IMG/VR virus record: IMGVR_UViG_3300010998_000001
Coordinates: 91,477-155,476 of that record
Direction: 5' to 3' (one strand)
Length of the DNA stretch: 64,000 nucleotides
From: a virus
Taxonomy: Duplodnaviria; Heunggongvirae; Uroviricota; Caudoviricetes
In this document: piece by piece, positions 1,209-38,220 of the stretch
How the letters are laid out: each line of letters starts with the position of its first letter
Numbering within the stretch: the stretch's first letter is position 1
The notes under the pieces: model-generated
The model's database searches: none
Told to the model about the DNA's origin: nothing
The model's input: only the letters and a program-made list of their open reading frames with translations
Made by a program: the position numbers and the translations under genes

Positions 1209-1237
1209 CCACTTCTAACAGTTCATTTCCTGTTAGT

Positions 1238-2104: not shown

Positions 2105-2314
2105 TTATATCAACCTCCCATATTATATAGACAGATACATCTATCTGTCTCTAAAAATGAGAAAGTGATATATCTAATTAGTAAAGGTGGCGCGGCCTCG
2201 TGGGAAAGTTATTTCATTTCCTATGCGTTGCCTGTGACTATCTCTAGCCTTCCAGTCGGGTTGGCATCTCAGCGTTCCCGTATTTTCCGCGCTTTTTCAA
2301 AATGTATTTCTACA

Positions 2315-3682: not shown

Positions 3683-4559
3683 GATTAGACAATGGTCTTA
3701 TTGCATGGCGATCATAGTATTCGCCTATGCCATCCATATCTTTATACAAAGTCTTATCTCTGTAATATTCTTCGGGTGTATATTGAGAAACCAAAGAAGT
3801 CCATGCACTCCAACAATCATCGGCGCTTGTCGATGCTTCTTGCACTGTCTTTAATCCGGCCTGTTGGAATGATTTTATATATGACTCAGTAAGTTTCTTA
3901 TAATCATCAACACGATTTTCGCGGACAGCTTTCATCTGTTGCATTTTTGTATAACAAAGGTCTAAAACAAAAATCTCCTGGTTGCTATCGCAATTTGGAT
4001 TTGCTTCCTTTAAATACTTATAATGTTGATTGAGTAAATCATAATCTTCTGGTTCATAACCATATCCCCATCGTTGAATGTTTGCCTTACTGATCTTTGG
4101 CTCATCTGAATCGTTAGGTTTGTTTTCTTCGCTTGGCTGTTCTTCCTGTTTTGACTTTTTGGGAGCCTTCTTTTCCTTGGCGGGAACATCACCAAAAACA
4201 AATCCCTCGGCCAAAGTATTATCAAATGTTTTATTTTGAAATTGAACCATATTCAATTTCTTTAGATAACTCCCCAATATAGCTTCCGTTCCATTATCAC
4301 TTTTCAAAAATAATGAATCACTATAATATAAATCAAACATCATACATATTTTTTGAATTGCTTTTTTGGCATCGCGGTATTGCATTTCGTAGTGCTTATA
4401 TATCTCTTCCAAACAATCTTTGCACACAGGAAGTCTACCAGTGCTGCTGTATATATAACTATTTGACTTTGAAAAATTTTCTAGCGATATGAAAGATTTG
4501 CGACACATATTGCACACATATCTTTCACTAGTTGTATATCCTTCTGGCAATACTGCCAC
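3615..4559 (-). CDS. Hypothetical Zn-finger protein lying upstream of terL (possible small terminase or DNA-binding subunit)
   Basis: N-terminal CNMC...CKDC pair, acidic C-terminus, and position immediately 5' of terL. The assignment rests mainly on position. Confidence 0.3.
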   Translation of the reverse strand: MAVLPEGYTTSERYVCNMCRKSFISLENFSKSNSYIYSSTGRLPVCKDCLEEIYKHYEMQYRDAKKAIQKICMMFDLYYSDSLFLKSDNGTEAILGSYLKKLNMVQFQNKTFDNTLAEGFVFGDVPAKEKKAPKKSKQEEQPSEENKPNDSDEPKISKANIQRWGYGYEPEDYDLLNQHYKYLKEANPNCDSNQEIFVLDLCYTKMQQMKAVRENRVDDYKKLTESYIKSFQQAGLKTVQEASTSADDCWSAWTSLVSQYTPEEYYRDKTLYKDMDGIGEYYDRHAIRPLSNLEMGTNDRDYEFFVHESGDDDD

Positions 4560-4600
4560 CCTCTTTCTCGACTAATATAAAAATTACAACTAACATTAAA

Positions 4601-4677
4601 TGGTTGCGGGAACGGGACTCGAACCCGTGACCTTCAGCTTATGAGGCTGACGAGCTACCAACTGCTACCACCCCGCA
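4601..4677 (-). tRNA. tRNA-Met (anticodon CAT), with an acceptor/T-arm very similar to bacterial initiator tRNA
   Basis: Minus-sense TGCGGGGTGG...TCAGC-CTCATAA-GCTGA...GGTTCGAGTCC...CCCGCAACCA. CCA is encoded. The 1:72 pair is U:A. Confidence 0.8.
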
Positions 4678-4736
4678 TTATACAAATACCCCCTCTTCAC
4701 AAAGAAGAGGGGGATTAATATTTATTATCAAAGACT

Positions 4737-5210
4737 TCAACTATCAATTAAAGTTTCCAGTAATTCTCCTAATGTAACTGTAAACTCATAAATAGAATCA
4801 GATTGGCAATCAGCGCATTCACATTCGCAATCTTCATCAACTAAAATTTCATAACAATTTTCTACGGAAGTATCAGCCATTGCATTAGCATGAACATCTC
4901 CACCTAGCAACAGCACGTCCGCATCAGTATTCAAATAATTATCATTAACGTATGCTGGCTCTACAGATAATGTTTTATATTCGTCAAGCGAAACATAGTA
5001 TTCTCGATCATAGCCATTGTAAAAGGATGGCTCAATATCGAGTGCTGAAATTTCAACATCATCGAAAGATAATAACTCTCTTAATAATTGAATTGCATCT
5101 TCATAATATAATACGGCAACAATATATATATCATCTGTAGCTTCATCATACATATACTCAGCCATATCTATATAATCATCAAAATATAGTCTGTCCATTT
5201 TGTTCCTCAT
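4737..5210 (-). CDS. Acidic hypothetical protein (157 aa)
   Basis: ORF track; D/E-rich. Confidence 0.45.
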   Translation of the reverse strand: MRNKMDRLYFDDYIDMAEYMYDEATDDIYIVAVLYYEDAIQLLRELLSFDDVEISALDIEPSFYNGYDREYYVSLDEYKTLSVEPAYVNDNYLNTDADVLLLGGDVHANAMADTSVENCYEILVDEDCECECADCQSDSIYEFTVTLGELLETLIDS

Positions 5211-5485
5211 TTCATATTTATCTCATCTTTGATTGTTTTACTCATCTTGCATTTAATTGTCTTGCTCGCCGGATACTCTTCAACCATGCCAGTAAGCGGA
5301 TTTCTACGCTTGCCGCCAGCGCGTTCGGTTGTTTCAAAACTCATAAAGCCACTTATCAATACTTTATCTCCGGCCACCAAACAATCTTTAATTTCTTCTG
5401 CCAATGCAGTTATAACTTTATCACAAGATTGTCGTGAGATGCTTGTTTTTGCACTAATATTCTTGATTAACTCACGTCTTGTCAT
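5207..5485 (-). CDS. hup: HU/IHF-family histone-like DNA-binding protein
   Basis: Family signature GFMSFETTERAGGKRRNPLTGM (GF.F...R.GRNP.TG arm), ~90 aa. Confidence 0.85.
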   Translation of the reverse strand: MTRRELIKNISAKTSISRQSCDKVITALAEEIKDCLVAGDKVLISGFMSFETTERAGGKRRNPLTGMVEEYPASKTIKCKMSKTIKDEINMK

Positions 5486-5506
5486 CTTTATTCCTCTTTC
5501 AACTAA

Positions 5507-6712
5507 TTATTCTAAATCTATTGGATAACAAGTTTTGACACCAGAATGATCTAATACGCATATCATCTGTGATGCTTTGCCACTTAAACGCTTAGAGATC
5601 GTATAATCATCTACTGTTCCGCAGAAACTACCACTCCGAATAATCTTAACCCCCGATATATCATCATAGGAGCATCTATGTAAATGTCCATAGAAAATTG
5701 CTGTTGGTTTATATCCAAGCATCATCACAAGTTTAGAAACTCCTTGCTCGCTATAGACATCCATATCGCCATGGACTAAAAGATACTCGTGACCTCTGAT
5801 CGACCAATTGGAAATAGTAGAATCAATATTATCCTCACAAAAGATAATATTATCAATATGTGATAGCTTTGCTTTCATATACCAAGGAATAAGTGTATCT
5901 AAACGTTCTCCGCGTAATACCTCATCCTTTTTCATAGAAGTTCGTGAATGATTACCTGAAACGCTGTTCACATACACATTGGTAAAAATTTTGCTTAACT
6001 CATATACAAAAGCAGAAATCAGCTCCGCAGACTTTTGTACTTGTTCCACTGTATGCTCACGCTCTTGTAAACGAACAGTTGGATGAATACCACCAGAAAT
6101 CACATCACCAAGAATACCTACATACGCATTCTCTGATCCATGTCTTTCTTGTATAATAGCTATCTCTTGTAGATACTGAGATAGACGCTCTGCCGCTATA
6201 TCAGAGTTGTATGAGCCAAAATAGCTATCGCTAGTGAGTCCAAGGTGAAAATCAGACAATGAAATAAATAAATCGTTATCCGAATGAATGACTGGCTTAT
6301 ACACGCTTGGTAGTGTTATTGTGCCATTTGATTCGATTAATGACGCAAGATAAGCTAAATCTTCTTCTAGTCTGGCGCTATCACGCAGTTTCTTATTTAG
6401 AGCCACACGCTCATCAAATAGCTTTTGTTTCTCTTTGCGTATCTCCTGTTTTGTCTCTTGTAGCTCACTAATATAGTCTTGAGAATTTATATCCGTAGTA
6501 AATACACCAGCCGTATAATATTTCGCCGCCTGTTGATAAGGCTTTCTATATGCGGCCTCCGTTCTATACTCAGATTCATCAGAACGAAATTCTTTATTAA
6601 TAATCGAAGCTAGTTCATCCCATGACAAATCAAGTGTGCCATTATCTTTGGCTTGACCCAAACGCCATATAAACTGCTCTTCATTCTCATCTTTATTTCT
6701 TCTTATGTCCAA
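5507..6712 (-). CDS. Calcineurin-like metallophosphoesterase (Mre11/SbcD-like nuclease or phosphatase) with an N-terminal coiled-coil
   Basis: Metallophosphatase motifs GDVISGGIH, GNHS, LLVHGDMD and FYGHLH. Confidence 0.65.
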   Translation of the reverse strand: MDIRRNKDENEEQFIWRLGQAKDNGTLDLSWDELASIINKEFRSDESEYRTEAAYRKPYQQAAKYYTAGVFTTDINSQDYISELQETKQEIRKEKQKLFDERVALNKKLRDSARLEEDLAYLASLIESNGTITLPSVYKPVIHSDNDLFISLSDFHLGLTSDSYFGSYNSDIAAERLSQYLQEIAIIQERHGSENAYVGILGDVISGGIHPTVRLQEREHTVEQVQKSAELISAFVYELSKIFTNVYVNSVSGNHSRTSMKKDEVLRGERLDTLIPWYMKAKLSHIDNIIFCEDNIDSTISNWSIRGHEYLLVHGDMDVYSEQGVSKLVMMLGYKPTAIFYGHLHRCSYDDISGVKIIRSGSFCGTVDDYTISKRLSGKASQMICVLDHSGVKTCYPIDLE

Positions 6713-6730
6713 ACCTTTTCCTCCATATGA

Positions 6731-7342
6731 TTAAAGGATCGAGTTAATATCACAATCCTCACCAATTATGTAATCAACATATCCAAATTCTTGGGCCTCT
6801 TTAGGAAGCATATACCATTCAACTCTCTCATGTTCTTTATATGTACTGGCAAGAATATTGCTGTGATTTAGCACAAATTCCTTTATCATTTCGCTAATAT
6901 CATTGTTTAAAAACATCATTCTGTCTTTCATCTTTGACAGATGATCCAAGTCACCAACAATGGCCTCATGGATAAGGAACTCACTTCTTGGCATAGCAAA
7001 ACGTTTATCCCCCGCCATGAAAATATAACACGCTGCGGACGCGGCCAATCCCAAATTGACCGTATATACAGGAGTTATACTGGTAGTAATCGCATCAACC
7101 AGGGCAAACCCATCACTCAAATTGCCGCCAGGAGAATTAATATAAAGAATAATAGGTGTTCTTTTATCCACTGGTTTTCCTTGATCCACTCTGTTATATC
7201 GCAAAATGTGATAAATCACATTATTTACAACGTTTTCATTTACTTCATCGTTAAGATACAGATGACGCACTGCTACATCTTCCATAACAAAAGCATCTTC
7301 ATAACTATAATTAAATGCTTCTGCAAATCCGTTCTTTTTCAT
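6731..7342 (-). CDS. ClpP-family serine protease (likely prohead/maturation protease)
   Basis: INSPGGNLSDGFALVDAI (ClpP signature), catalytic Ser in GLAASAAC, and His in FLIHEA. Confidence 0.75.
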   Translation of the reverse strand: MKKNGFAEAFNYSYEDAFVMEDVAVRHLYLNDEVNENVVNNVIYHILRYNRVDQGKPVDKRTPIILYINSPGGNLSDGFALVDAITTSITPVYTVNLGLAASAACYIFMAGDKRFAMPRSEFLIHEAIVGDLDHLSKMKDRMMFLNNDISEMIKEFVLNHSNILASTYKEHERVEWYMLPKEAQEFGYVDYIIGEDCDINSIL

Positions 7343-7350
7343 ATATCCTC

Positions 7351-8793
7351 CTATAGATGAACAACCATCCCGCGAAATGCCATAACTACACGATAAGTCT
7401 TGTTATTATTAGATATGGCTTCTTTCAATCTCTTAGCAAGGGCAGACTTACTCTCGGCTGTTCCGTGAACAAGAACAAGTTTATTAGTATTCAACGAGCT
7501 TCCGAACTTAATCAAATCTGTGCTATTTGCATGACTACTAAATGTAGTCAAAGAAATACAGTCTGCTTTGTTGGGGATTTTCAGTTTGTTAATACTAATA
7601 AATTTGTGATCTCGATAATTCTTTACTCGATATGACAAATATGATGGGTTATCCCCCGTATAACCAGAAAAGACAATAATGCTATTCGGATCGGCAATAT
7701 ACTTCTTGAGATACTTTACAATCCTGCCGTTAGTGCAAAAACCAGATGAGGATATAATAATCTTTGGTGAATTATCCGCCAGCCACAAATCAGATTCATC
7801 TTTTTCTGAAACAAACTTCACATTCTTCCAGTTATATACCTTTTGCCAATCGTCTAAATCGGCATCATCAAGCAATGAATTATATGCCTTACTTACATCA
7901 CAACTTAGTTTTGAATCCACTAATACAGTCTTATTAAAAAATGAATCTGTTCCAAACAAATCATATAATGATGTAAGAACTTCTTGTGTGCGGCTAAAAC
8001 TGAAACATGGAAACACTACCGATCCACCACGATCTATTGCTGTTTCCACCGTTGACTTTAAATGATCTAAGTCAGCTTTCCGCGTTTTGCGAGAATCGCG
8101 TTTTTCATCTCCGTATGTTGACTCCATTAATACACAATCAACAAACTGAGTCGGTATCTGTGTATCAGGTAAAAAGTGATTATCAGTGTGCAATGCACCT
8201 AAATCTGACGTGTAAAGAATTTTTTTAGTTTTCTCTTTTGTGGATAGGATTAGGTAAAGTTGCGCAGCTCCAAGACAATGAGAGTTTGACAACCATTGAA
8301 AACTAACCGTATCGTTCAATTTAATAGTTTGGTTATAATCATCATATTCATATATTAAATCAAATGTATTATATACATCTGTGATTTCATATATTGGTTT
8401 ATAATTCCTGCCAAACTGCTTTGAGAGAATCTTGCTTTCATCATTTAGTATATGACAAGAATTGATTAAAAGTAATTTCATAATCTCTGCGGTCTTATGA
8501 GTTGCAATAATCCGTCCATGGAATCCCTCATGAACCAATCTTGGAAGAAGGCCGCAATGATCTATGTGTGGGTGTGCCACAAATACAAAATCAATTTCCG
8601 ATGGCTTGAACTTGAATTTTTCAGAATTAATCTTATAAGAATCTAAATAACTATTGCTGGAAGATTGATGCAATCCACATTCTAATAAACACTGGCATGG
8701 GCCAAATCGAATGTAATACTGTGAACCAGTGACATCATCAGATGCTTTTCCAGTAAAGAAAATGCCATCCGTTTTTAGTTTCTTTTTACTCAT
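7351..8793 (-). CDS. Metallo-beta-lactamase-fold / beta-CASP-type nuclease (RNase J / CPSF-like)
   Basis: HxHxDH motif FVAHPHIDHCG near the N-terminus; 480 aa. Confidence 0.6.
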   Translation of the reverse strand: MSKKKLKTDGIFFTGKASDDVTGSQYYIRFGPCQCLLECGLHQSSSNSYLDSYKINSEKFKFKPSEIDFVFVAHPHIDHCGLLPRLVHEGFHGRIIATHKTAEIMKLLLINSCHILNDESKILSKQFGRNYKPIYEITDVYNTFDLIYEYDDYNQTIKLNDTVSFQWLSNSHCLGAAQLYLILSTKEKTKKILYTSDLGALHTDNHFLPDTQIPTQFVDCVLMESTYGDEKRDSRKTRKADLDHLKSTVETAIDRGGSVVFPCFSFSRTQEVLTSLYDLFGTDSFFNKTVLVDSKLSCDVSKAYNSLLDDADLDDWQKVYNWKNVKFVSEKDESDLWLADNSPKIIISSSGFCTNGRIVKYLKKYIADPNSIIVFSGYTGDNPSYLSYRVKNYRDHKFISINKLKIPNKADCISLTTFSSHANSTDLIKFGSSLNTNKLVLVHGTAESKSALAKRLKEAISNNNKTYRVVMAFRGMVVHL

Positions 8794-8805
8794 GGCAAAG
8801 CCTCC

Positions 8806-8988
8806 TTACAGAAGTTTCTTCGCCATATCAACATACTTATCTTCGATATACCGTTTTGTTCTAGTCCGATAGTATCCGATTACAAAGCCGCTTTTATTAA
8901 TAAAGCCTTTTCTAGTATTTCGTATAATCCCATTCTTTACTAGAACATTCATTTCATTTTTGGTAATCGTTTTTATGGTAAACACCAT
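8806..8988 (-). CDS. Small hypothetical protein (60 aa)
   Basis: ORF track only. Confidence 0.3.
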   Translation of the reverse strand: MVFTIKTITKNEMNVLVKNGIIRNTRKGFINKSGFVIGYYRTRTKRYIEDKYVDMAKKLL

Positions 8989-9035
8989 CCTTTATTTAAT
9001 AATAAAACCAGTAGCCTTAATAGACTACTGGTGCT

Positions 9036-9112
9036 ATGGCTCTCCGTGTAGGTCACGATCCTACGACATCCAGATTAACAGTCTGGCGCTCTACCAACTG
9101 AGCTAACGGAGA
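9036..9112 (-). tRNA. tRNA-Asn (GTT)
   Basis: Clean cloverleaf on the minus strand. The anticodon loop is CTGTTAA between CCAGA/TCTGG. CCA is encoded. Confidence 0.85.
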
Positions 9113-9118
9113 TTATAT

Positions 9119-9195
9119 TGGTGGAAGTAAGCGGAATCGAACCGCTGCTCTTCTGCTTGCAAGGCAGCTGCTTTCCCAACTAAGTTATACCCCCA
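9119..9195 (-). tRNA. tRNA-Ala (TGC) with the G3:U70 identity pair
   Basis: Minus-sense GGGGGTATAAC...CTTGCAA...GGTTCGATTCC...TACTTCCACCA. G3 pairs with U70. Confidence 0.8.
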
Positions 9196-9289
9196 TATAA
9201 AGCGGCAACTCGGCAGGATTTAACATTCTCCCTACAGTTTTAGATACAAAGACTTCGCCTCGCTTACCAGGCATTAACGCCACCGCTTA

Positions 9290-9366
9290 TGGTAGTCAGA
9301 GAGGGGATCGAACCCACGATCTCACGATTATCAGTCGTGCGCTTTAGCCTACTAAGCTATCCAACT
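9290..9366 (-). tRNA. tRNA-Ile (GAT)
   Basis: Acceptor AGTTGGA/TCTGACT; anticodon stem-loop CACGA-CTGATAA-TCGTG; T-loop TTCGATC; CCA encoded. Confidence 0.75.
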
Positions 9367-9564
9367 ACATATAAACATCTTCATGTTGTACCTCTGGCAC
9401 AGTCGAAACCATGCCAGAGTACCACATCACGAAGAAAAGAGAAAGATAAAGAAATGAGAATGGTATAGTTTACTATATATACCATATAATAAAATTTTTA
9501 ACCACATGCGAAAACGCCCATAAAATGAGAGAAAAATAAAGGTCTTATCTTTTAATTGTGCTGA

Positions 9565-10449
9565 TTACATACTTATACTTTTTGATCTATAGTTTTGAAC
9601 GTTTTCTCTTATTTTATTTCTTCTATATTTATCATAACAATTATTGCATCTATTCGTTTGATTGTTTTTTGCGTCTACATCAAACGTCTTTCCGCAATCC
9701 ACACAAATAATGGTTTTCGTATCCCATGTTTGATACCCGGCACATTCAGAACAATACTTCTTTGTTTTAGCTTTATTGTTCTTTATCAATCTGCCGCAAC
9801 TTGCGCAACGAACATAACCGCCATGAGCATAATTCAAATACTCATAGCCAAGCTCTCTGAAATCACTGATTGAAATTACATATGGGCTATCGTCATTAAC
9901 AAACGTTACTCTATTACTTAGATTGTCATTCTTCTTAGGGAACTCTAACAAACCAAGTAGACCAAGATCGCCAAGCATTTGATACTGCTTTAGCTTGCTT
10001 GCGGAGATATGGGCCATTTTGAAAATGTCCTTTGCATCCTCATTGACCCATCCATTATTCTTTACATTCCTTTTATTGGCTAGCTTTGCAAGACATAGTA
10101 TTGTAAATGCTAATCTTTTTAATTCTGTTCTCCCATTTGACTCTTCTATACTATTGATCGTATCAATCTCTGCCTGAGTGATTAGAATTTCACTAATATC
10201 ATATAATGGGTATTTCCCGGCGCGGCGGGAGATACGTTCAACAGTTTCTTGCCATTTAAGGATATTAGCATGATAACGCTTATAGTTTTCTTTCAAAAAC
10301 TCTAACAAGGCTTTTTCAATTCTTTTAGTACGCATTCCTTGTTCATAATAGTATTTTGCAAGTATCTGTAAAGTGATATATACGTTCTCACCCACATCAC
10401 CCGTGTTTATACAAGTCTCGGCGTATTCTCGTTCATTAAGTATAATCAT
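9565..10449 (-). CDS. Hypothetical protein with a C-terminal multi-Cys zinc ribbon
   Basis: CASCG...CSECAG...CVDCG...CNNC cluster in the C-terminus. Confidence 0.45.
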   Translation of the reverse strand: MIILNEREYAETCINTGDVGENVYITLQILAKYYYEQGMRTKRIEKALLEFLKENYKRYHANILKWQETVERISRRAGKYPLYDISEILITQAEIDTINSIEESNGRTELKRLAFTILCLAKLANKRNVKNNGWVNEDAKDIFKMAHISASKLKQYQMLGDLGLLGLLEFPKKNDNLSNRVTFVNDDSPYVISISDFRELGYEYLNYAHGGYVRCASCGRLIKNNKAKTKKYCSECAGYQTWDTKTIICVDCGKTFDVDAKNNQTNRCNNCYDKYRRNKIRENVQNYRSKSISM

Positions 10450-13180
10450 CTATCTTATCACCAACATACATTGTCCGCATATCAAAGACATGTCCACAAT
10501 ATTCAAATTCATCTCCACCATTGACAGGGAAGGAAATTGAATAGTCATTTCTCTTTAATAGATTATGTATAATAGTTTCACCAGCAACTTTCCAGGCAAA
10601 TTGTTTTGATTTTTCTGTCTGATAACAAATATCTAAAACAATATCGCAAAGCTCTAATTCGTTGCTACAAATCTTTTCTGCGGCGGACTTAAAACGATTA
10701 ATAAACTCTTCTTCTGAATTCTCATCTTCATCTGAAACGCCAGAATGAGCCACACGCTGAAAATATGCTTCTCTCTCGTGTGTATAATTTATATATAACT
10801 CTTTGATTGCGTTAAAATCTTTTTTACTGTATTCTGTTCCACTTTTTAAAATAGTATAATCAAATTCTTGATCTATGCGCGATCTAATTGCAGAAGAATC
10901 AAATTCATTTTCTATGATATGGCACAAACGGTTGATAACACAATCATTAAAACCTACGCTCATTCCATATTCATAGTGTTGTATGAAATCAACCATCTCT
11001 TTTGTTTTAGGCGTATATTCTAGTAGTTCTTTGAAACTCTGAATATTGTACTTACGAAATTTGCAAATAACTTTATAATCCGTGTTTTGCAAATACTTTC
11101 TCAGTTTTGTTTTTAGTGCCGGATATACATATATCATAAAGTATGGCTTGTGTGCTGCAACGATCTTCTTGTGAAATGCTTCCGCATCATCTCGCGGAAT
11201 GTCGCGCATTGAATACCAGTATGGAGGCATAGGTTTTGCAATAATGCCTTTAGCTCGATCTATTGTGTTCTGCTGAAAATTCTGTCCGCACATGATACGG
11301 TAATTAAGAATTTTGTATTCTTCACTATCAGGTTGAAAACCAGCTCTCCGCTCGATCATTGAAGTAACATGGTTAGTAACAACACCAATATCATCATTGA
11401 ACGCCAGTTTATTAGCTGCGATAATCTCATCCTCAGTAACTATCTTTTTCTCTGCTTTTCGCTGCACACATACAATTGTAGGCTTTTGTTGTAGGCTCTG
11501 AAGGATAATTGGATTATCCGTACACATATTGGTATCGCCATCAAAATCCGATCCATTCATTGCCTCACAGGTGCTATCAAAGGCATTGTGTATAAGCGCC
11601 GTATCTATATATTGAAACCAATGTAACGCCTCTGCCGAACGATTCAGACGAACCTTTCGGATGTTATTGCTGACTGTCATAGGGGCACGAAAACAAGCAA
11701 TCTCATCTGATCCTCTGTCAATCCAATACTTGTGATAACACTCACCAGCTCGCAATAGACCAGTTACAGGCAACCCAAACATACTTTGACACAGCGCATA
11801 CAAATCGCCGCTTATCATGGCATAATTGCCATTAACACGGATAGAACCCTTCTTAGCACAATCAATGCGTTTTTTTATCATAGTCTGAATGTTGCGCCGT
11901 ACATATGGGTCATTGATTGCCGCTGGCTCGATCATCAGCGCCTTTATATAATCGTCCTCGATCTTTAAAACATTCGACTCATTGAGGCTAAAACCAGCCA
12001 GGAACACTATAGCCTTGCGATAATCCATTCCGAGAACACCATTGATCTCATCAATCGTAGGTTGGCACAGCTCACGCAGCGCATCATCGTCCATATCAAT
12101 GTCCTGAAGGAACTGATAGTTAGTATCTCTTACATTCTCTAATTCATCAGGAGTCAGTTTTGCGGCAGAGAACTCATACCCGTTTTTAATACAGTTGCCA
12201 TAGTAATCTTCCCAACTATCGTAGCAATTCCACAACTTCAACATAGATTCTGTTAAGATGACTTCTGCATCTCTAACATCTCTATCGTCGCCCCATACAT
12301 CCTTTATCACATAAGACCCAGCGACTTTCTCTGCAAACTCCACAAAATCAAATGTATATACCATACCCTTAGTCCAGGCCCATCGTGAATTAAAACCAGA
12401 TACGGTTTTCTCTGGATCGCCGCCGAAGCTTGCATTGACTCTCTTAGAATACGACGGAAGCATCAAACCGTAGCCATCAGAATTGTTATGCTCGATCTCG
12501 TAATCCTTGACATATGACAAATCTGGTTCATCACCCTCTGAGTCCTGGATCAAAATGACATCTTCTTTAAAATGAGTAATACAGTCATTCACAACAATGA
12601 TTCCATGTGGCTGTGGTAGGGGAGTGGAGCCAGAACAAATGAGGGCTTGATATGCCTCAAGCTTGGCAGGAACCAGAGGGACATCATGATTGCGCCCGTT
12701 ATCTAACTTGGCTTTTAATGCCGGGTACAGCTTATCATTCACATAAACAATCGTGCTGTTCTTAATACCACCATTTGTCCCAAGAAATCTTCTGTACTTG
12801 ATGCCATTAACATAGAAACCTTTATTAGCGCGGTCATAATCAGAATTGCTCGCCATAACTACACAAATGTAATCTTGTTGAAACTGCAACTCATAAAGAA
12901 CACGATAGTATTCATTAATCATCTTCTTAGTTTCAACTGTCCTTGGCTTTTTCTTTTCTATCTTAATCTTTTTCTGTACTGCGCGGATTTCGTTATCAAT
13001 GTTTCGCACATTATTCAGTTTATCAATAAACCTTAGAACTTGACTCGTACCGATAGAAACCACTATCTCAGGGTAATCACGCAAGGCCTCGTCTAAAGGC
13101 AATTTTAAATTCCAATTAGCTTTCTTTAATTGTTTGCTGCTGATCTTGTATATCAAACGTAAGCAGCTCTGTTGTTTCAT
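10436..13180 (-). CDS. Large protein (914 aa) with a DFDGD metal-binding motif; candidate single-subunit two-barrel RNA polymerase (YonO/QDE-1-like). Function unproven.
   Basis: NGSDFDGDTNMCTDNP resembles the NADFDGD catalytic loop of multisubunit-type RNAPs and the DxDGD loop of cellular RdRPs. No Walker motifs and no PolA/PolB motifs are present. Confidence 0.35.
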   Translation of the reverse strand: MKQQSCLRLIYKISSKQLKKANWNLKLPLDEALRDYPEIVVSIGTSQVLRFIDKLNNVRNIDNEIRAVQKKIKIEKKKPRTVETKKMINEYYRVLYELQFQQDYICVVMASNSDYDRANKGFYVNGIKYRRFLGTNGGIKNSTIVYVNDKLYPALKAKLDNGRNHDVPLVPAKLEAYQALICSGSTPLPQPHGIIVVNDCITHFKEDVILIQDSEGDEPDLSYVKDYEIEHNNSDGYGLMLPSYSKRVNASFGGDPEKTVSGFNSRWAWTKGMVYTFDFVEFAEKVAGSYVIKDVWGDDRDVRDAEVILTESMLKLWNCYDSWEDYYGNCIKNGYEFSAAKLTPDELENVRDTNYQFLQDIDMDDDALRELCQPTIDEINGVLGMDYRKAIVFLAGFSLNESNVLKIEDDYIKALMIEPAAINDPYVRRNIQTMIKKRIDCAKKGSIRVNGNYAMISGDLYALCQSMFGLPVTGLLRAGECYHKYWIDRGSDEIACFRAPMTVSNNIRKVRLNRSAEALHWFQYIDTALIHNAFDSTCEAMNGSDFDGDTNMCTDNPIILQSLQQKPTIVCVQRKAEKKIVTEDEIIAANKLAFNDDIGVVTNHVTSMIERRAGFQPDSEEYKILNYRIMCGQNFQQNTIDRAKGIIAKPMPPYWYSMRDIPRDDAEAFHKKIVAAHKPYFMIYVYPALKTKLRKYLQNTDYKVICKFRKYNIQSFKELLEYTPKTKEMVDFIQHYEYGMSVGFNDCVINRLCHIIENEFDSSAIRSRIDQEFDYTILKSGTEYSKKDFNAIKELYINYTHEREAYFQRVAHSGVSDEDENSEEEFINRFKSAAEKICSNELELCDIVLDICYQTEKSKQFAWKVAGETIIHNLLKRNDYSISFPVNGGDEFEYCGHVFDMRTMYVGDKIDDYT

Positions 13181-13283
13181 CCAATCACCTACCGGGTCAT
13201 TTTTGTATTACAATACAATAGTTATAAACCATCAATGACATTGCGTAATATGGAAGCTCATATAAACTCTGGATATAAAAAAC

Positions 13284-13724
13284 TTATTGCACATCAATAG
13301 TTTTTCGACTTGCTTTGAGACGTTCCGCAATCTGCGCTCTTTGTTCATCTGAGAGGATGACCTTGCGCGGCGGGGATACCTTAATCCACTTCTTCGGCAC
13401 TATGTAATCTGCAAAATCACCACCACGAGATTCATGCTCCAATCTACATTCATCTGGATACTGTTCTGCCAATGAGCGCAACCTATTTAATAATGCGCGA
13501 TTTCCAGTATAAACACCAGCCTCATCTTCGGCATCGTTGTAAGTGATAACCGTTTCTGTTTCTAGTTTTGAATATCTTTCAGCCATCTCCACCAACCTTT
13601 CTAATAATCCAACACATAAACTCAAGCAACTCGATAAAAATAAAGATAGGAAGTGAGAACGGCCAAACAAAGCCAACCACTGTACTTTCCATATAATCAA
13701 TCTTATCGTCTGATTTCTTAACAC
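13284..13724 (-). CDS. Hypothetical protein (146 aa)
   Basis: ORF track. Confidence 0.4.
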   Translation of the reverse strand: MLRNQTIRLIIWKVQWLALFGRSHFLSLFLSSCLSLCVGLLERLVEMAERYSKLETETVITYNDAEDEAGVYTGNRALLNRLRSLAEQYPDECRLEHESRGGDFADYIVPKKWIKVSPPRKVILSDEQRAQIAERLKASRKTIDVQ

Positions 13725-13793
13725 TATGCAAGCTTATCATAGACATGATAAACCACATAACAAAATAACCGACAATTCCAATAATCAACCACA

Positions 13794-14207
13794 TTATGAT
13801 TCACCGCCGATCTTTTCTCTTACTTGTTTCACACTGAGCGAACAAGGAAGATGCTGCCATGCCACCACCTCGTCATCACACAGTTCGTTATCAACAACCC
13901 AATTTCGCCCAAGTCGCCAGCCGCATACCGTATATGTATCTGGATGATCGTATCTATCACACAGACACATTAGAATGACCATTTCATTCTCTGGCGGTTT
14001 GGAAATGCAACACCAATTCCACGGGTCTTTTATTGGCGGCGAGGTCAGAACCTTTGAGGGAAGTTTATCTACACTCCTTGGGATAATTTTGCCGCTAGGC
14101 GTAGGAGGCGGAATCAACGTCCATCCACGCAGACTTTCCTTTTCTATGTATTCAGTCATCCTGATCTGCTTCCTCCAGAGCTGTTGGATTATCAAATATA
14201 TTTCCAA
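13794..14207 (-). CDS. Hypothetical protein (137 aa)
   Basis: ORF track. Confidence 0.4.
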   Translation of the reverse strand: MEIYLIIQQLWRKQIRMTEYIEKESLRGWTLIPPPTPSGKIIPRSVDKLPSKVLTSPPIKDPWNWCCISKPPENEMVILMCLCDRYDHPDTYTVCGWRLGRNWVVDNELCDDEVVAWQHLPCSLSVKQVREKIGGES

Positions 14208-14604
14208 TCATCTCGCCCTCAAACTTCCCGTCAAACAGCCACGCTTGCAGAAAGTAATTTCCTGCGCAGAAACCGCCCTCATCAAATTCAACAACATAGC
14301 GCACAAGACTATCATCATTGAAACTCTTAACTCGGATAACATCACCCTCGAAAATAGGTTTCTTATTCCTATCGTCTATTCCAGAATACCTACCAACAGT
14401 CTTAGGATCAACCTCAATTGCCACCAGCTCTCTTGGCATATTCCAATCTGCGAAACTGTCAAAGAAAATATAATGTTCTATCTCATTATCTTTTAATCCG
14501 TCGCCAATCACACATGGCTGTCTTTTCTCATGTCTCACATAATAGCCAAAGCGCCAATACCCGTTCAAATCCTTTGCGCGACTAATTTGATTTTCCAATT
14601 TCAT
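14152..14604 (-). CDS. Hypothetical protein (150 aa)
   Basis: ORF track. Confidence 0.4.
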   Translation of the reverse strand: MKLENQISRAKDLNGYWRFGYYVRHEKRQPCVIGDGLKDNEIEHYIFFDSFADWNMPRELVAIEVDPKTVGRYSGIDDRNKKPIFEGDVIRVKSFNDDSLVRYVVEFDEGGFCAGNYFLQAWLFDGKFEGEMIGNIFDNPTALEEADQDD

Positions 14605-14866
14605 CTAACAATTCCTTTCCAGCACGATACGCCTCTAATGCGCCGCGTAAATACAACTCTTCATCTTCTGTAACATCTGCCATAAACAAGTAATCATTAT
14701 GGCGAATAAACCCGATCTGTTTCAAAAACGTATTGAATTGTTCTCCCATATCAAATAGCATTTCAGTTGATGGGGAATCCATTTCAGTATGAGCCGTATT
14801 AATTCTTCCATAACGATCTTTATGTCCAAAATCCAATTCCCAATGAATCATACAAGGACTAATCAT
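14582..14866 (-). CDS. Hypothetical protein (94 aa)
   Basis: ORF track. Confidence 0.4.
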   Translation of the reverse strand: MISPCMIHWELDFGHKDRYGRINTAHTEMDSPSTEMLFDMGEQFNTFLKQIGFIRHNDYLFMADVTEDEELYLRGALEAYRAGKELLDEIGKSN

Positions 14867-15024
14867 GTTGAACCTCCCGCCATAAATCCTGCCAGCATAA
14901 TTGCTACGCCTATAAATTGCGCGTCATTTGACAAATCTGTATATCCACCATTTGCTATACCATAAAGCAAGGCGAGTGATAAAATGAAACCTAAAACCTT
15001 ATTGCGTGGCATCTATATTATCCT

Positions 15025-15471
15025 CTAACGATTTCTAAACCTTGAATTGCTCCTGGCATCCAATACGCGACGAATGCCAGCTACAGAAAGATCAGCCGTG
15101 AATACACAGTCGCAATTGTCACACTCACACTCGGCGCTCATCATATCGTCCGCATAGTCGATCTCTCGCATATTAGGACTCCCACAGCTCAGACAAAGAA
15201 TAATGTCGTTATCTGAAATATCGCAAACGAAATCGCCAAGCATATCATCCCATCCATCATTCAGGTCTGACCATACATGTCTGCAACGTTCACACAAACA
15301 ATAATCATTGAACTCTCCGCTAACTACGCCAGTTTCGCGGGAGTAATGATCTCCAATATGGATAGGGGCGCGACAGTATTCACACCGATAATTTTTCCGA
15401 GCTGTCCTATATTGACTATTCCAAAAACTCATTAGTAGGCACCATGACAATGCCAGCAGAACTCTTATCAC
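15025..15471 (-). CDS. Cys-rich hypothetical protein (148 aa, several CxxC pairs)
   Basis: ORF track; CEYCRAP...CERCRH...CLSCG...CECDNC. Confidence 0.4.
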   Translation of the reverse strand: MIRVLLALSWCLLMSFWNSQYRTARKNYRCEYCRAPIHIGDHYSRETGVVSGEFNDYCLCERCRHVWSDLNDGWDDMLGDFVCDISDNDIILCLSCGSPNMREIDYADDMMSAECECDNCDCVFTADLSVAGIRRVLDARSNSRFRNR

Positions 15472-15631
15472 AACAAGGGCAATTGCAAACAGGATAAGGT
15501 TTTAGTTGCCCTTGCTGTAGTATATATTCATCGTTATTTGCTTCCCACTTGCAACCGCAATTCCAGCAAGTAAATATAGCTGGCCTTTTTGTATTCTCCA
15601 AATTTCCTTCTTTAAGAATTCTCATAATCAC
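15416..15631 (-). CDS. Small Cys-rich protein (71 aa)
   Basis: CWNCGC...CNCPCC. Confidence 0.35.
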   Translation of the reverse strand: MIMRILKEGNLENTKRPAIFTCWNCGCKWEANNDEYILQQGQLKPYPVCNCPCCDKSSAGIVMVPTNEFLE

Positions 15632-16119
15632 CAGTCCACATATACATCAAGCGTATTCGCTGTGGCACAATAATCGTAAACACAACCTTGTTTACCAAGC
15701 GGAGTATCTACAACCGTTCCTTTCTCAAGTGTATTAGAAGCCAAACATATGTAATCGTTCTCGTCGCACACATATCCATCATCGTCAACGTGGCGACCTG
15801 GGATCGACAGCCCGCCGCCAGGGAGGACTCTCTGACTATACCAAGTCCAGCGCCAGCCATTCCAATTCAAAACGCCCATCCATTGAAAATCAGAAGGTTC
15901 ATATAATCGCGGCGAAGTAGTTTCCTCTTCTGATTCATCTGTTGGTTTCTCCAAAATCAATTCTCTTGATGCGCGGCCAATCATCACAATTGGCTGTGTG
16001 ATCTCCGGCGCTGGTGTTTCTTCTACAATTGTTTCTGTATTATCTGTTCGGCTCGTACACGCCGCCGCTGTAAAGATCACGAATGCGGCAAGCACCAGCC
16101 AAAATATTCGTTTACTCAT
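15628..16119 (-). CDS. Lipoprotein with a C-terminal 3D-like (MltA-type, Asp-rich) domain; candidate peptidoglycan-binding or lytic protein
   Basis: Signal peptide plus lipobox MSKRIFWLVLAAFVIFTAAAC. The C-terminus reads DTPLGKQGCVYDYCATANTLDVYVDW. Confidence 0.45.
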   Translation of the reverse strand: MSKRIFWLVLAAFVIFTAAACTSRTDNTETIVEETPAPEITQPIVMIGRASRELILEKPTDESEEETTSPRLYEPSDFQWMGVLNWNGWRWTWYSQRVLPGGGLSIPGRHVDDDGYVCDENDYICLASNTLEKGTVVDTPLGKQGCVYDYCATANTLDVYVDW

Positions 16120-16486
16120 TATGTATCCCTAGCATCTCCTGTATGTAAAAAAGAATATGTTTTGATGAAATTCTTAGAAATCTTGCCTGAGATTGACAGT
16201 CATCAAATGGCACGATTCCTGAATCCTCTGGCGGAAGTTCGCATTGTCCTATAATGAAATCAAATAATCTCAAACAGGATTCTAATGCGAAAACGTGTTC
16301 CACATAGGATTTAAATTCATCTGGCTCTAATCCAGTATCTTCATAATCCGCGAGCTTGCGTAATGCAATTTGTTCGCACTCACGCTCCGTAAAAAAATTC
16401 TGCCAATCAAAAGATTCTGAATTATACATTACATTCTCTGTTGGCTTATCATTTTGATCTTTCTGTCTATATGTAAGTCTCTTCAA
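16112..16486 (-). CDS. Hypothetical protein (124 aa)
   Basis: ORF track. Confidence 0.4.
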   Translation of the reverse strand: MKRLTYRQKDQNDKPTENVMYNSESFDWQNFFTERECEQIALRKLADYEDTGLEPDEFKSYVEHVFALESCLRLFDFIIGQCELPPEDSGIVPFDDCQSQARFLRISSKHILFYIQEMLGIHNE

Positions 16487-16797
16487 ATTTCGCGCCTCTG
16501 TGTTTCATATCTCCATGGCCCATCCATACCATCATTAATACAAAAATTGCGTAGGCATTTAGGACACACTAAATAATCAATTGCATTTCTAACGCGGCCA
16601 GTGTAATAACGCACACCGTATTCAACCGTCGTTTCTTCTTCTGTGAACCATACGGCCTCTAGCTCACAGCCGCAATATGCACATTCACCGTACTTGCTCA
16701 TAGCGCTCCCAGCGTTTGCAATAATCGTCCCACATAACAGCGCCAATGCTCCAAAATTTACATGGTGCGTGGCCGCAAGCGTTATGGACTCCATCAT
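16483..16797 (-). CDS. Hypothetical Cys-containing protein (104 aa)
   Basis: ORF track. Confidence 0.4.
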   Translation of the reverse strand: MMESITLAATHHVNFGALALLCGTIIANAGSAMSKYGECAYCGCELEAVWFTEEETTVEYGVRYYTGRVRNAIDYLVCPKCLRNFCINDGMDGPWRYETQRREI

Positions 16798-16910
16798 AAT
16801 GAATACAGGTATTGCAGTGCCGCTCTAAAATGCTGATCGCCACTTCTAGCGCCTCGGCCCATTTACCGAATACACATGGCCGGAACTTCTCTTTTAAAAA
16901 ATTGGCGGCT

Positions 16911-17117
16911 TCATAATTCGTCATCCCACATATCTCCGTCCCTGATTATATTAATAACTTCCACTTTCGTAATCTTTCGACCACACCATGGACAAAAACG
17001 ATATGAAACACTTCCACCACCGCCACACTTTGCGCAATATGTTCGGCCAGGTTTGCCCCAAGACTGATTAACACCTTCTATGTATTCATGTTTCCAATAA
17101 CTTGTATCAGTCATCAC
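16911..17117 (-). CDS. Small zinc-ribbon protein (68 aa)
   Basis: CAKCGG...CPWCG. Confidence 0.4.
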   Translation of the reverse strand: MMTDTSYWKHEYIEGVNQSWGKPGRTYCAKCGGGGSVSYRFCPWCGRKITKVEVINIIRDGDMWDDEL

Positions 17118-17412
17118 TACACCTTGATTTCAGCCAATCGAGCCACATGCTTTTACACACGGCCATCTTAGTTTCATTTTCTCCATACTCATCTCTCAGT
17201 TGCAACTTGGTATGATAATCTGCCAGTTCATCATCAGACATGGCGCGAATCTTATCAGCCTTTGTCTGAGGCTGTCTATTACGAACCTTTTCAATGCCTC
17301 TCTTAAATCCTCTAATATAAGCCTCTTTGATCGTGCCGCCCATGTCTCTACGAAGGTCTTGACATTCAGAAGTCCAGCAGTTTTCAGCCGCAAGTATAAC
17401 TTTATCAATCAT
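17107..17412 (-). CDS. Hypothetical protein (101 aa)
   Basis: ORF track. Confidence 0.4.
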   Translation of the reverse strand: MIDKVILAAENCWTSECQDLRRDMGGTIKEAYIRGFKRGIEKVRNRQPQTKADKIRAMSDDELADYHTKLQLRDEYGENETKMAVCKSMWLDWLKSRCSDD

Positions 17413-17842
17413 TGATTTTCATTCCCTCATCCATACGAGCGCCGCAAAACCAGCAGTAGTGTCCGCGAATCGCTGTACTTGCATTATCATGATTTCCGCA
17501 ATTAGAACACTGATATTTTGTTCCAAATCCCGGCCCCGTCTTTTTAATCCAATGTGCATGGACTACTTTCACAACATCATCCATCTGTTCGCCTAAACCC
17601 TTGCCAATGGACTCAAGCTGTTGGATAGCAATGTCGCGTTCCCATACTGCTTGATCGTAAGCACCATTTGATACTGCATCGGCAGATGGAATATCAGCAA
17701 TATGTTTCTTCACGCCAGCAACATCAATCACGGCAGATAAAGCACTCTTGCGCTGAAATGCCTCATGCTGAGACAGCTCCGCGATCCTCTTGTCAACTGC
17801 TGCCATAGCATCGTCGCTGTAGATTAATTTGCGCTCACTCAT
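17405..17842 (-). CDS. Hypothetical protein with a C-terminal zinc ribbon (145 aa)
   Basis: CSNCG...CWFCG. Confidence 0.4.
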   Translation of the reverse strand: MSERKLIYSDDAMAAVDKRIAELSQHEAFQRKSALSAVIDVAGVKKHIADIPSADAVSNGAYDQAVWERDIAIQQLESIGKGLGEQMDDVVKVVHAHWIKKTGPGFGTKYQCSNCGNHDNASTAIRGHYCWFCGARMDEGMKIND

Positions 17843-18181
17843 TTTTTATATCCATCCTTGAACCGCATATAGGGCAATAAGGCAATCTCTTCGCAACCAT
17901 AGCATCACATTCTGAGCAATCAAAAGCATCTTCCAGGTCATCGACTGGTATCCATTCTCCATGCCGCATAACATGCACATTACCAATAGCGATAGCATTT
18001 AAAAGACCTACCAAATTGCCTAGACTATTTTATTCGCACCATAATAGTAAGCTGCCGATCTCTTCTGGTTCTACATCCAAATCCTCATAGATCATCAGCT
18101 TGTTATAAATCTCTCGCCAAATTCTCTCATTGGCATAAACCACATAAGGTTTTAAGCCACTGTCATGAGACGTTAATCTGT

Positions 18182-18793
18182 TCATACCTTTATGTACCTC
18201 TCAAGCTCAAGCTCTTTTTCATGTTCCAGTTGATCCCGCCACTCGCGCACAATCCTAATCACTTCATCCATATCATCTAAGTAAAATGTCTCGATATATG
18301 CTTCACTATTTCCCGATTCATCAGCGGCAAACTTATACAATGTGATTGTCCTGAATACATGATCTTCATTGTGCCAAACATCTACATTGAATTTCTCCTT
18401 GAGTTCATTGCACAGATCATTGAGCTGCGCAAACTTAACCTTCTCAAAGTAAAATTCAACGTGCCGGGGCCAGGAAGAGAAGAAACCGTAATTGCATCCG
18501 ACTTTGTATATGTAATTGTCCCGCGCCAGCTTAGAAGGGATTTCAGAAATCATCTTCCTAAAGTATTCAACTGAATGGGCGCGTTTGTAGTGATTACATG
18601 AGCGGCAAGAGGGGAATAGGTTGTCCATATCATCCGTGCCGCACTCTTGTTCATTCCATGCGTGAATAGGCACTACATGATCTACTTGCATATCTTTATA
18701 ATCAATCATCCGGCCACAATAAGCGCAATGGCCGTCAAACTTTTTGTATATCTCTTCTCGTTGCGCTTTCGTCAGTTTCTTTCGCTCCGCCAT
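18182..18793 (-). CDS. HNH endonuclease
   Basis: DGHCAYCGRMIDYKDMQVDHVVPIHAW...NLFPSCRSCNHYK. Confidence 0.75.
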   Translation of the reverse strand: MAERKKLTKAQREEIYKKFDGHCAYCGRMIDYKDMQVDHVVPIHAWNEQECGTDDMDNLFPSCRSCNHYKRAHSVEYFRKMISEIPSKLARDNYIYKVGCNYGFFSSWPRHVEFYFEKVKFAQLNDLCNELKEKFNVDVWHNEDHVFRTITLYKFAADESGNSEAYIETFYLDDMDEVIRIVREWRDQLEHEKELELERYIKV

Positions 18794-18819
18794 AACTTAC
18801 CATCCTAATATATTATATG

Positions 18820-19170
18820 TCACACCTTAGTTGGTTGTTCCGTATTAACCATAAAACAAGCGAACATCTTTTCTTCCGGCATCCAGCTAATGTCCATCTC
18901 TGGTTCATACGATAACAGGTCAATGACCTGATAGAGATGAAAGCAGTAGTCAATATTGCCGCGTCTGACGTTCCGCAAAATGTCATTAATAAACTCTGAG
19001 TAAAAGTAATCTATAGAAAAGCCAGAAGGAGAGAAGAGGCCAACAGAGGAATCATAAGGCATCCATCTCTCTTGCACAGGAACGATACAGCTGCGAAGAG
19101 CTGATAAGACAGACTCCCATTCTGCTCGCCCGATCTGCTCAAGGGCCTTCTCTTGTTCTTGAAAAATCAA
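18820..19170 (-). CDS. Hypothetical protein (116 aa)
   Basis: ORF track. Confidence 0.4.
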   Translation of the reverse strand: MIFQEQEKALEQIGRAEWESVLSALRSCIVPVQERWMPYDSSVGLFSPSGFSIDYFYSEFINDILRNVRRGNIDYCFHLYQVIDLLSYEPEMDISWMPEEKMFACFMVNTEQPTKV

Positions 19171-19319
19171 ATTGCATTGTAACCTCCTATGAAGCTCCGC
19201 TGGCCGCGATCAATCTACGTTCAATTAATTGAAGCCAGACCCGGTAATTTCCTGGCTCTTATTATACACGCCTAAATCTGGTTTGTCAACCCTTAGTTTG
19301 TTTTGCGCTTTAGAGCTGC

Positions 19320-19500
19320 CGCCCTCCCGCCATTCAGAAACACCCTATAAAGAAGAAAAGAACTAAAAGAAGAAATTTAATATAAGAATTATAGTATATT
19401 AAATAAAGTATATTATAATACTCTTTAATATAATATACTCCTATTATTATATATATTAACTTCTTATATAATGTATAATATATAATATAATAATAGTAGT
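19320..19500. repeat. Extremely AT-rich stretch with nested palindromes (AGTATATTATAATACT-like); candidate DNA-unwinding element in the divergent control region
   Basis: Direct reading. Sits between the leftward and rightward gene blocks. Confidence 0.4.
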
Positions 19501-19599
19501 AACGAGGAACATCAAAAATTTCTATTCATTTTTAAAAGAATTTGAGCAAATTTCAAATGAATTTCACAAGATTTTGAAAATCATCTTTCTTGCGCCAGA

Positions 19600-38214: not shown

Positions 38215-38220
38215 AAGACA

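Follow-up and report, generated by a model that had tools for sequence, protein, structure and literature searches.

A leftward open reading frame (ORF) of 914 amino acids (aa) containing a DFDGD loop raises the question of whether the virus of IMG/VR record IMGVR_UViG_3300010998_000001 encodes its own RNA polymerase (RNAP) and, if so, which genes this enzyme would transcribe and from which start site. The stretch of 64,000 nucleotides (nt) that was analyzed, positions 91,477 to 155,476 of that record, is called the window throughout. The best explanation overall is that the gene encodes a YonO-family DNA-dependent late RNAP of an SPbeta-like phage of Clostridia (probability about 0.82). Membership of the YonO family is nearly certain, and a role as a DNA-dependent late-gene polymerase is very probable by analogy with YonO. 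The proposal that an adjacent 294-aa gene (the partner) and a conserved non-coding element are its factor and its promoter or leader is tentative.

Among living relatives of the universal multisubunit RNA polymerase, enzymes of the YonO type are regarded as the simplest, and only one of them has been studied. Previous work has shown that YonO of phage SPbeta is a processive, strictly DNA-dependent and NTP-specific RNAP, the founding characterized member of the single-chain RNAP family, distantly related to multisubunit RNAPs and essential for phage production, and that its aspartate triad is catalytic by mutagenesis (PMC5467207). The SPbeta late genes form one operon that YonO reads from a single start upstream of yonK; which promoter it uses and whether it needs a cofactor were left open (PMC5467207).

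The original prediction had placed a 914-aa ORF with a DFDGD motif at 10436-13180 and called it the largest gene of the leftward block, and both points agreed with the ORF listing and the translation. The listed protein contains AMNGSDFDGDTNMC and the string NGSDFDGDTNM, and positions 11528-11560 on the minus strand translate to MNGSDFDGDTN. A Shine-Dalgarno-like AGGTGA lies 4-5 nt 5' of the ATG. In the Pfam scan, aa 118-610 matched the RNA-dependent RNA polymerase (RdRP) family PF05183 with an E-value of 5.5e-12 (45.6 bits, gathering score 23.8), and the PHROGs scan assigned the protein to families without known function. PF05183 is the eukaryotic-type RdRP family, that is, the QDE-1 family. 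BLASTP against SPbeta YonO gave 28% identity over 556 aa (E 4e-34), with DFDGD aligned on the DNDGD of YonO. Among isolated phages, tblastn found Clostridium phage c-st and Enterocloster phages at 37-38% identity and Bacillus phage BUCT082 at 29%, followed by 24 SPbeta-type Bacillus phages in which the match was yonO (26-28%, E about 1e-28). A search of 1.84 billion representative proteins, from which the 115 full-length relatives compared below were drawn, gave a family size of 1767 representatives at 50% identity.

The three aspartates D545, D547 and D549 were invariant in an alignment of 36 sequences (22-100% identity) and again in 115 of 115 diverse full-length relatives (28-72% identity), G548 was the most frequent residue in its column (81 of 115), and F546 was variable. 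Because the aspartates are invariant across relatives, DFDGD is not a chance pentapeptide; together with the alignment to YonO DNDGD, this upholds the earlier reading of the loop as a catalytic motif of the Mg-binding type. The superfamily of two-barrel RNAPs was reportedly described by Iyer in 2003 and by Ruprich-Robert and Thuriaux in 2010. Eight residues are invariant in all two-barrel RNAPs, namely the DxDxD triad, a fourth Asp, an Arg/Lys and a Lys on the other barrel, and R-x-P upstream of the triad (PMC2919709). In the window protein these are D235, R266, K271, R498, P500, D545, D547 and D549, and all eight were kept in 112-115 of the 115 relatives. Their counterparts in Qde1 (D709, R738, K743, R962/P964 and D1007/D1009/D1011) stand in the same order, with spacings in RNAP and Qde1 of 31/5 versus 29/5 and of 47 versus 45, the mapping being one of spacing and family alignment rather than of structural superposition. 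Invariance of the eight active-site residues across relatives argues for purifying selection on catalysis. It is extremely improbable that the gene encodes a degenerate or repurposed two-barrel protein without polymerase activity, or a replication primase-like enzyme. Nothing specific speaks for this beyond a fast-evolving family in which aa 1-115 and 655-914 have no characterized homologue, whereas the eight catalytic residues are invariant at 28-72% identity and the RNAP gene lies outside the replication module, whose clamp and primase-like genes occupy 36994-41654 on the opposite strand of this phage genome of about 155 kb.

An AlphaFold2 model built from the 36-sequence alignment (mean pLDDT 86.4, pTM 0.81) placed two regions of double-psi beta-barrel (DPBB) within one polypeptide of about 105 kDa. 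The first, beta-subunit-like region holds the invariant D235, R266 and K271, plus G272 and K315 (D235 to G272 correspond to nt 12365-12478), and the second, beta-prime-like region holds R498-x-P500 and the DFDGD loop, with R498, P500 and the triad invariant in all 115 relatives. When the model was compared with the PDB by Foldseek, 21 matches to QDE-1 and RDR2 were obtained (E 1e-17 to 5e-13), followed by a Thermus-phage RNAP; the crAss-phage two-barrel RNAP and isolated DPBB domains were matched as well. A sequence search of the PDB copy with the protein and the family profile gave no relevant match, a YonO structure included. The link to QDE-1 is one of fold comparison only, because no sequence relative was present among the solved structures searched. 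The suggestion of a YonO-like or QDE-1-type two-barrel RNAP was borne out by the PF05183 match above the gathering score, the YonO alignment at E 4e-34, the eight residues and the Foldseek matches; the predicted model shows a DPBB around DFDGD and not an unrelated fold, and the Lys/Arg expected in a second barrel were found as R266 and K271, invariant in the predicted first barrel. The enzyme itself is another member of the already known YonO kind. In the mechanism proposed, the two DPBBs of the single chain would form the active site, the beta-prime-like barrel giving D545/D547/D549 to hold the catalytic Mg2+, with R498 and P500, and the beta-like barrel giving D235, R266 and K271.

Family names and structural neighbors bring in a second reading, a true RdRP that copies or amplifies phage or host RNA and does not transcribe DNA. 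The best Pfam family is named 'RdRP', the top structural neighbors QDE-1 and RDR2 are RNA-dependent, and the GenBank homologues in phages PMBT24 and Perkons are so annotated; this label in Pfam and in some GenBank records is family naming, not functional evidence. QDE-1 and RDR2 are eukaryotic, RNA-dependent silencing enzymes (PF05183; QDE-1 is dimeric) at 12-15% identity to the window RNAP, whereas the latter is a phage enzyme in a transcription context, for which a preference for DNA templates is expected. Moreover, QDE-1 also accepts DNA templates (PDB 7y7r/7y7t titles), and YonO, the sole characterized bacterial or phage member of the family, has a strong preference for DNA as template and serves late-gene transcription (PMC5467207). 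As the window gene also stands in an SPbeta-like gene order, immediately upstream of the late operon, and no RNA-silencing-type partner genes were seen, an RdRP is considered highly improbable.

The YonO-family RNAP of the window and YonO share a single chain, two barrels, the DxDGD triad, the eight invariant residues and a C-terminal helical domain extending to ~aa 875. They differ in size (914 aa versus 839 aa) and in their ends: YonO carries a C-terminal CxxC...KYCxxC zinc ribbon and a basic tail, both of which the window RNAP lacks, and the alignment showed that RNAPs of the window clade terminate in FEYCGxxFxM, with just one Cys and without the ribbon. Because the fused C-terminal ribbon of the YonO type is missing, the window RNAP was placed in a distinct sub-clade with a split architecture, in which a ribbon-tail-like module is carried by the separate 294-aa protein, whereas in YonO it is fused to the polymerase. 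Multisubunit RNAP (beta/beta-prime, NADFDGD) has a core of about 400 kDa against the single chain of the window enzyme, and no sequence homology to it was detected beyond a few catalytic residues. The two-barrel enzymes of Thermus phages (P23-45 gp64 / P74-26 gp62, and gp96) and of crAss-like phi14:2 (gp66) showed no detectable sequence similarity to the window RNAP; of these, gp96 and gp66 are packaged in the virion and joined to further modules, and the promoters of this group are different (PMC10770324).

The late-gene role was examined through genes and sequence: synteny with SPbeta and one conserved element at the equivalent position are consistent with transcription of the late operon from a dedicated start site. 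The exact protein is found on a 155-kb metagenomic contig. The order in SPbeta is yonO, yonN (HU), a gap with the YonO start site, yonK, yonJ, yonG, yonF (terminase) and yonE. In the window, the RNAP gene is followed 3' on the same strand by the 294-aa ORF, a 770-bp gap with tRNAs and the late genes, and the YonJ_N, HU, YonG_N, terminase and YopX families flank it in SPbeta order. From this parallel gene order the window was read as the late region of a distant SPbeta-like phage with the RNAP in the yonO position. The two phages differ in host (Clostridia for the window phage, Bacillus for SPbeta) and in the beta-CASP RNase, ClpP and tRNA genes, which the late block of the window holds and that of SPbeta does not. 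The RNAP would be made early from host-RNAP promoters and would then transcribe the co-oriented block of tRNAs, RNase, protease, YonJ, HU, YonG, terminase and further genes, with initiation at the single conserved element.

Two perfect sigma70 consensus sites stand out in 4500-21200, one at the head of the leftward block and the other at 21070-21097 (+). The former is probably the host-RNAP promoter that expresses the RNAP gene, and many small early-type ORFs lie upstream of the RNAP gene in the block behind it. The abundance of sigma70 promoters asserted in the original prediction was not found: 62 sigma70-like matches were counted in 4500-21200, against 63.1 +/- 8.2 in shuffled sequences. 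These observations bear on whether the enzyme could be packaged in the virion and injected to transcribe early genes, like N4 vRNAP, crAss phi14:2 gp66 or P23-45 gp96, which is judged very unlikely. The hallmark of such enzymes, a very large polyprotein or a fusion to tail or ejection modules, is absent from this free-standing 914-aa protein, whose gene lies downstream of a perfect host-type promoter and of many small early-type ORFs; canonical sigma70 promoters are available for early expression, and YonO is made after prophage induction and needed only for late genes (PMC5467207).

The partner gene was found directly after the RNAP gene in 80 of 80 IMG/VR loci (RNAP identity 43-69%) retrieved with the RNAP family profile. 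It also lies 3' of the RNAP gene in the metagenomic or genomic loci L009-L012 and in c-st, BUCT082 and CB457P1 (27-30% identity). The closest isolates, c-st (CST179/CST178 + CST177), CB457P1, PMBT24 and BUCT082, share this arrangement of RNAP and zinc-ribbon partner; an earlier list of YonO-like enzymes includes that of c-st (PMC7824862), and N-terminal and C-terminal YonO-like pieces were noted before in the c-st annotation. In the window the partner is apparently translationally coupled to the RNAP. Its AlphaFold2 model (pLDDT 89) comprises a helical N-domain, a helix-helix-helix-strand-strand unit that is probably a winged helix, two CxxC...CxxC ribbons and a long basic helix. When profiles were compared by hhalign, partner aa 246-294, the last ribbon and basic tail, matched the C-terminus of the YonO clade (probability 89.7%, E 1.9e-6). 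The fusion of the partner's C-terminal module in YonO is evidence of the Rosetta-stone type that polymerase and partner act together. The partner gene was not found in SPbeta. In BUCT082, a Spbetavirus, yonO is replaced by a 924-aa window-type RNAP that is 25% identical to YonO and has the motif DFDYD, and a 278-aa partner lies beside it (L008 3260-8962, compared with SPbeta); its 1.7-kb non-coding gap between HU and yonK (yonN-yonK), the late-promoter region in front of which the pair stands, is nearly identical to that of SPbeta. By this comparison, the pair of RNAP and partner appears functionally interchangeable with YonO, and the long gap conserved in BUCT082 and SPbeta suggests a large structured non-coding RNA. 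The partner is a candidate RNAP-associated or initiation factor, a zinc-ribbon/winged-helix protein that would act with the polymerase.

Variation was also seen within the gene pair. In L012 (Ruminococcus sp. YE282, 5789-8111) an 82-aa Cys-rich ORF lies between the RNAP and partner genes, and a 402-aa ORF lies between partner and element; the N-terminus of the latter is GIY-YIG-like by eye, and its C-terminus repeats a partner-like CxDCGKEY...C..C ribbon. The RNAP genes of c-st and CB457P1 are broken by group I intron-like sequence, in c-st at the catalytic motif, in contrast to the intact gene of the window. With 25.4 bits for the c-st insert (L007 8656-8952) and 46.8 bits for that of CB457P1 (L006 2755-3053), neither reaches the Rfam gathering score of 50. 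Among database homologues of the RNAP, many cover just one half, ending at query residues 545-548 or beginning at 548-552, and PHROGs divides the family at the same point (25339 and 35857). From these half-protein boundaries the insertion point falls exactly at the catalytic DxDGD motif.

The conserved non-coding element separates the RNAP/partner pair from the late operon and lies about 50-190 nt past the partner stop. It was found by nhmmer once per related locus, with E-values of 1e-30 to 4e-37 in L009-L011 and 8e-10 in Ruminococcus sp. YE282, and it is the most conserved 60-nt stretch within a 3.85-kb region. Its core TCTCATTTCTTTATCTTTCTCTTT is identical in phages with RNAPs only 53-72% identical. 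The core has one copy in the window even with three mismatches permitted (0 expected), and 27 IMG/VR contigs each carry a single exact core, with RNAP, partner, core, (beta-CASP) and YonJ invariably in this order on one strand. It is limited to the clade with at least 53% RNAP identity and absent in relatives at 43-49%, and nhmmer did not detect the CT-core element in c-st, the Enterocloster phages or BUCT082. A suspected second copy of the element at ~19340-19440 was unsupported by nhmmer and was dropped, and when the leftward block was searched for repeats that might be a recurring promoter motif, nothing beyond weak families of two copies emerged.

Both hairpins of the element keep their pairing. 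Hairpin 1, which lies 5' of the core, was assessed per sequence, MAFFT/RNAalifold having left it unaligned; at least 6 bp were formed in 20 of 20 sequences by 15 different arms, the stem varying and the pairing being kept. Individually these stems are only marginally better than shuffles, and support comes from the constant position and the 15 arm sequences. For hairpin 2, which lies 3' of the core, double changes were observed at 10 of 12 pairs, with 95% of cells paired; none of 500 shuffles reached as high a covariation, and slid controls gave at most 52%. About 25% of the cells are G-U, and because of these many G-U pairs hairpin 2 acts as sense-strand RNA. Comparison of the element with Rfam in E-value mode gave only chance-level snoRNA/miRNA matches far below the gathering scores. 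An intrinsic terminator was considered and rejected by inspection, since no U-run follows hairpin 1 and termination leaves the perfect conservation of an interrupted CT tract unexplained.

The box reaches further than the core. In distant relatives (43-49% RNAP identity) a ATGAAGGGAATATA-like box was found 90-170 nt past the end of the partner alignment. In the window clade it coincides in part with hairpin 1, at the 5' arm and the loop, and a related box is present at the same place across 43-68% RNAP identity. Matches to the box as a regular expression numbered 1.22 per kb in this zone versus 0.028 per kb elsewhere. In the yonN-yonK gap of SPbeta, CATTTATGA[AG]GGT occurs twice (the TTATGA[AG]GG box, also written CATTTATGAGGGT). 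The published primers for primer extension of P_YonO enclose an interval of 194 nt, and the second box falls within it, 80-110 nt upstream of the reverse primer; the published YonO start is position 2225998 of B. subtilis 168 (PMC5467207). As a working model, YonO-type RNAPs would use the box as their late promoter, and a clade-specific 5' leader would be made up of hairpin 1, the CU tract and hairpin 2. More broadly, non-SPbeta YonO-type RNAPs might be two-component enzymes, made of a catalytic chain and the partner, that use one ATGAAGGGAATATA-box promoter per genome; in the window clade the box would lie within a hairpin, and an invariant CU-rich leader of 24-28 nt and then another RNA hairpin would come after it. 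This generalization is possible and is put forward with some doubt.

A serious rival is that the element is purely a leader or regulatory RNA. In its full form, the RNAP is correctly identified, the element is such an RNA (for example for antitermination or processing), made by host RNAP or through read-through, or a DNA site for packaging or replication, and the partner is an unrelated DNA-binding regulator. The G-U content of hairpin 2 speaks for a sense-strand RNA, and the restriction of the CT core to the clade with at least 53% RNAP identity and the partner's lack of a significant fold match point the same way. A sigma70-like TTAAAA-18-TATAGT (9/12) overlaps the box in the window, but conservation extends to the box and not to its -35-like part. 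The element, moreover, is present in one copy per genome segment, always between partner and late operon and co-oriented with them, which mirrors the single YonO start site in SPbeta, and the C-terminal module of the partner equals the C-terminus of YonO itself; leader and promoter functions can also coexist in one element. This rival is given a sizeable chance, somewhat short of even. The reading preferred here takes the element as a candidate site of initiation by the YonO-family RNAP, judged from sequence conservation and position, with the partner as its factor.

Several points weigh against this interpretation and against parts of the overall assignment. The sense-strand RNA role of hairpin 2 is as compatible with a leader as with a promoter. 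The definition of the short box was post hoc, its regular expression matched in only 29 of 70 distinct loci, and in SPbeta the YonO start was located only to the interval between the published primers. For the partner, the best Foldseek match had an E-value of 0.18, which is not significant, with winged-helix DNA-binding proteins dominating the top, and the match to YonO spans only 47 residues. The RNAP structure is a prediction. Template specificity rests on one characterized relative, because identity to YonO is 26-28% and the structural neighbors QDE-1 and RDR2 are RNA-dependent. Finally, read-through by host RNAP could also express the late genes, because these lie on the same strand as the RNAP gene with no convincing terminator between.

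The locus leaves the identity of the enzyme unchanged; it shows that the family is large in phages of gut and rumen Clostridia and that most members of this RNAP branch are a conserved gene pair. Neither the universal partner gene nor the single conserved element was found in the literature searched. Comparative genomics pinpoints one short element as the most likely initiation site, and partner and element turn the questions of YonO promoter and factor into simple in-vitro experiments. If true, the two-component reading would supply the promoter and specificity factor missing for an ancient RNAP lineage since 2017.

The features of the leftward block are collected in Table 1. A terminator-like hairpin at 9007-9032 follows the tRNA genes, and tRNAs were found in the equivalent position in L009 and L010. 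The beta-CASP/metallo-beta-lactamase (MBL) RNase is RNase J/CPSF-like and, with ClpP, heads the late operon right after the three tRNA genes; it may process the tRNA-bearing late transcript. The terminase, apparently split in the window, is one ORF of 609-614 aa in L009 and L010, and no group I intron was matched in the split window terminase by Rfam even at E <= 1.

Table 1. Features of the RNAP locus and of the leftward late block, in window coordinates.
Feature	Position	Strand	Basis
YonO-family single-chain two-barrel RNA polymerase gene, 914 aa	10436-13180	-	Sole ORF listed there, ATG start
First (beta-subunit-like) double-psi beta-barrel region (predicted), ~aa 190-315	12236-12613	-	Model strand pattern
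Second (beta-prime-like) double-psi beta-barrel region (predicted), ~aa 445-575	11456-11848	-	Model strands 448-571
DFDGD catalytic aspartate triad, aa 545-549	11534-11548	-	Translation, family alignments; aligned to YonO DNDGD
Zinc-ribbon partner gene, 294 aa, start overlapping RNAP stop by 14 nt	9565-10449	-	
Single-copy element: box (TATATGGTATATATA), hairpin 1, invariant CT-rich tract, hairpin 2	9378-9515	-	nhmmer
Invariant 24-nt core of the element, TCTCATTTCTTTATCTTTCTCTTT	9436-9459	-	
Perfect sigma70-type promoter, TTGACA-17-TATAAT, 12/12, head of leftward block	19261-19289	-	
tRNA-Ile(GAU), tRNA-Ala(UGC), tRNA-Asn(GUU), directly 3' of element	9037-9366	-	tRNA calls
Presumed RNAP-dependent late operon, tRNAs at head of transcript	654-8793	-	PHROG and Pfam scans; SPbeta-like order
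Beta-CASP/MBL RNase	7351-8793	-	PHROG/Pfam scans
ClpP-like protease	6731-7342	-	PHROG/Pfam scans
YonJ-like exonuclease	5507-6712	-	Pfam YonJ_N
HU	5207-5485	-	Pfam Bac_DNA_binding
YonG-like protein	3615-4550	-	Pfam YonG_N
Terminase large subunit (YonF-like), N-terminal half	2315-3682	-	phrog_26582 and terminase PHROGs
HNH homing-endonuclease ORF between terminase pieces	1238-2104	-	
Terminase large subunit, C-terminal half	654-1208	-	PHROG match

The host is probably a member of the Clostridia of the Ruminococcus type. Homologues of the RNAP were found at 55% identity in the isolate Ruminococcus sp. YE282, whose prophage lies at about 145-155 kb of NZ_FMUV01000001, and at 61% identity in a Clostridia metagenome-assembled genome (MAG), and a Firmicutes host fits because of the strong Shine-Dalgarno sites and sigma70-consensus promoters. 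Prevotella/Bacteroidales host labels on some MAG homologues were set aside in favor of the evidence from the isolate Ruminococcus and the Clostridia MAG.

A 1.9-kb non-coding region (19170-21084), with a perfect TTGACA-N16/17-TATAAT promoter on each flank, separates the divergent blocks, and an equivalent gap of ~2 kb lies between the blocks in L009 and L010. Small inverted repeats of the type TTCCCAnnnnnTGGGAA recur in it, for example at 19709-19873, and may be operators or an origin. In the rightward block, a SAM-I riboswitch (RF00162) was found at 34346-34462 (+) with 60.4 bits against a gathering score of 44.4. A tRNA-biology module at 48131-51284 (+) and 58036-63848 (+) contains a nucleotidyltransferase, a CCA-adding enzyme, a Thg1-like tRNA-His guanylyltransferase, at least 12 tRNA genes and a phrog_850 RNA-binding protein (60610-62121); ARAGORN called a tRNA with a 4-base anticodon at 58036-58111 and a tRNA-SeC/UCA at 58685-58756. 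At 53419-55526 (+) a gene for a reverse transcriptase (phrog_1423, E 8e-110) precedes a 354-aa ORF of no known function; this may be a retroelement, of the diversity-generating or another type. At 42871-45947 (+), in the rightward block, two genes for tyrosine-recombinase/integrase-like proteins of 319 and 345 aa stand near each other.

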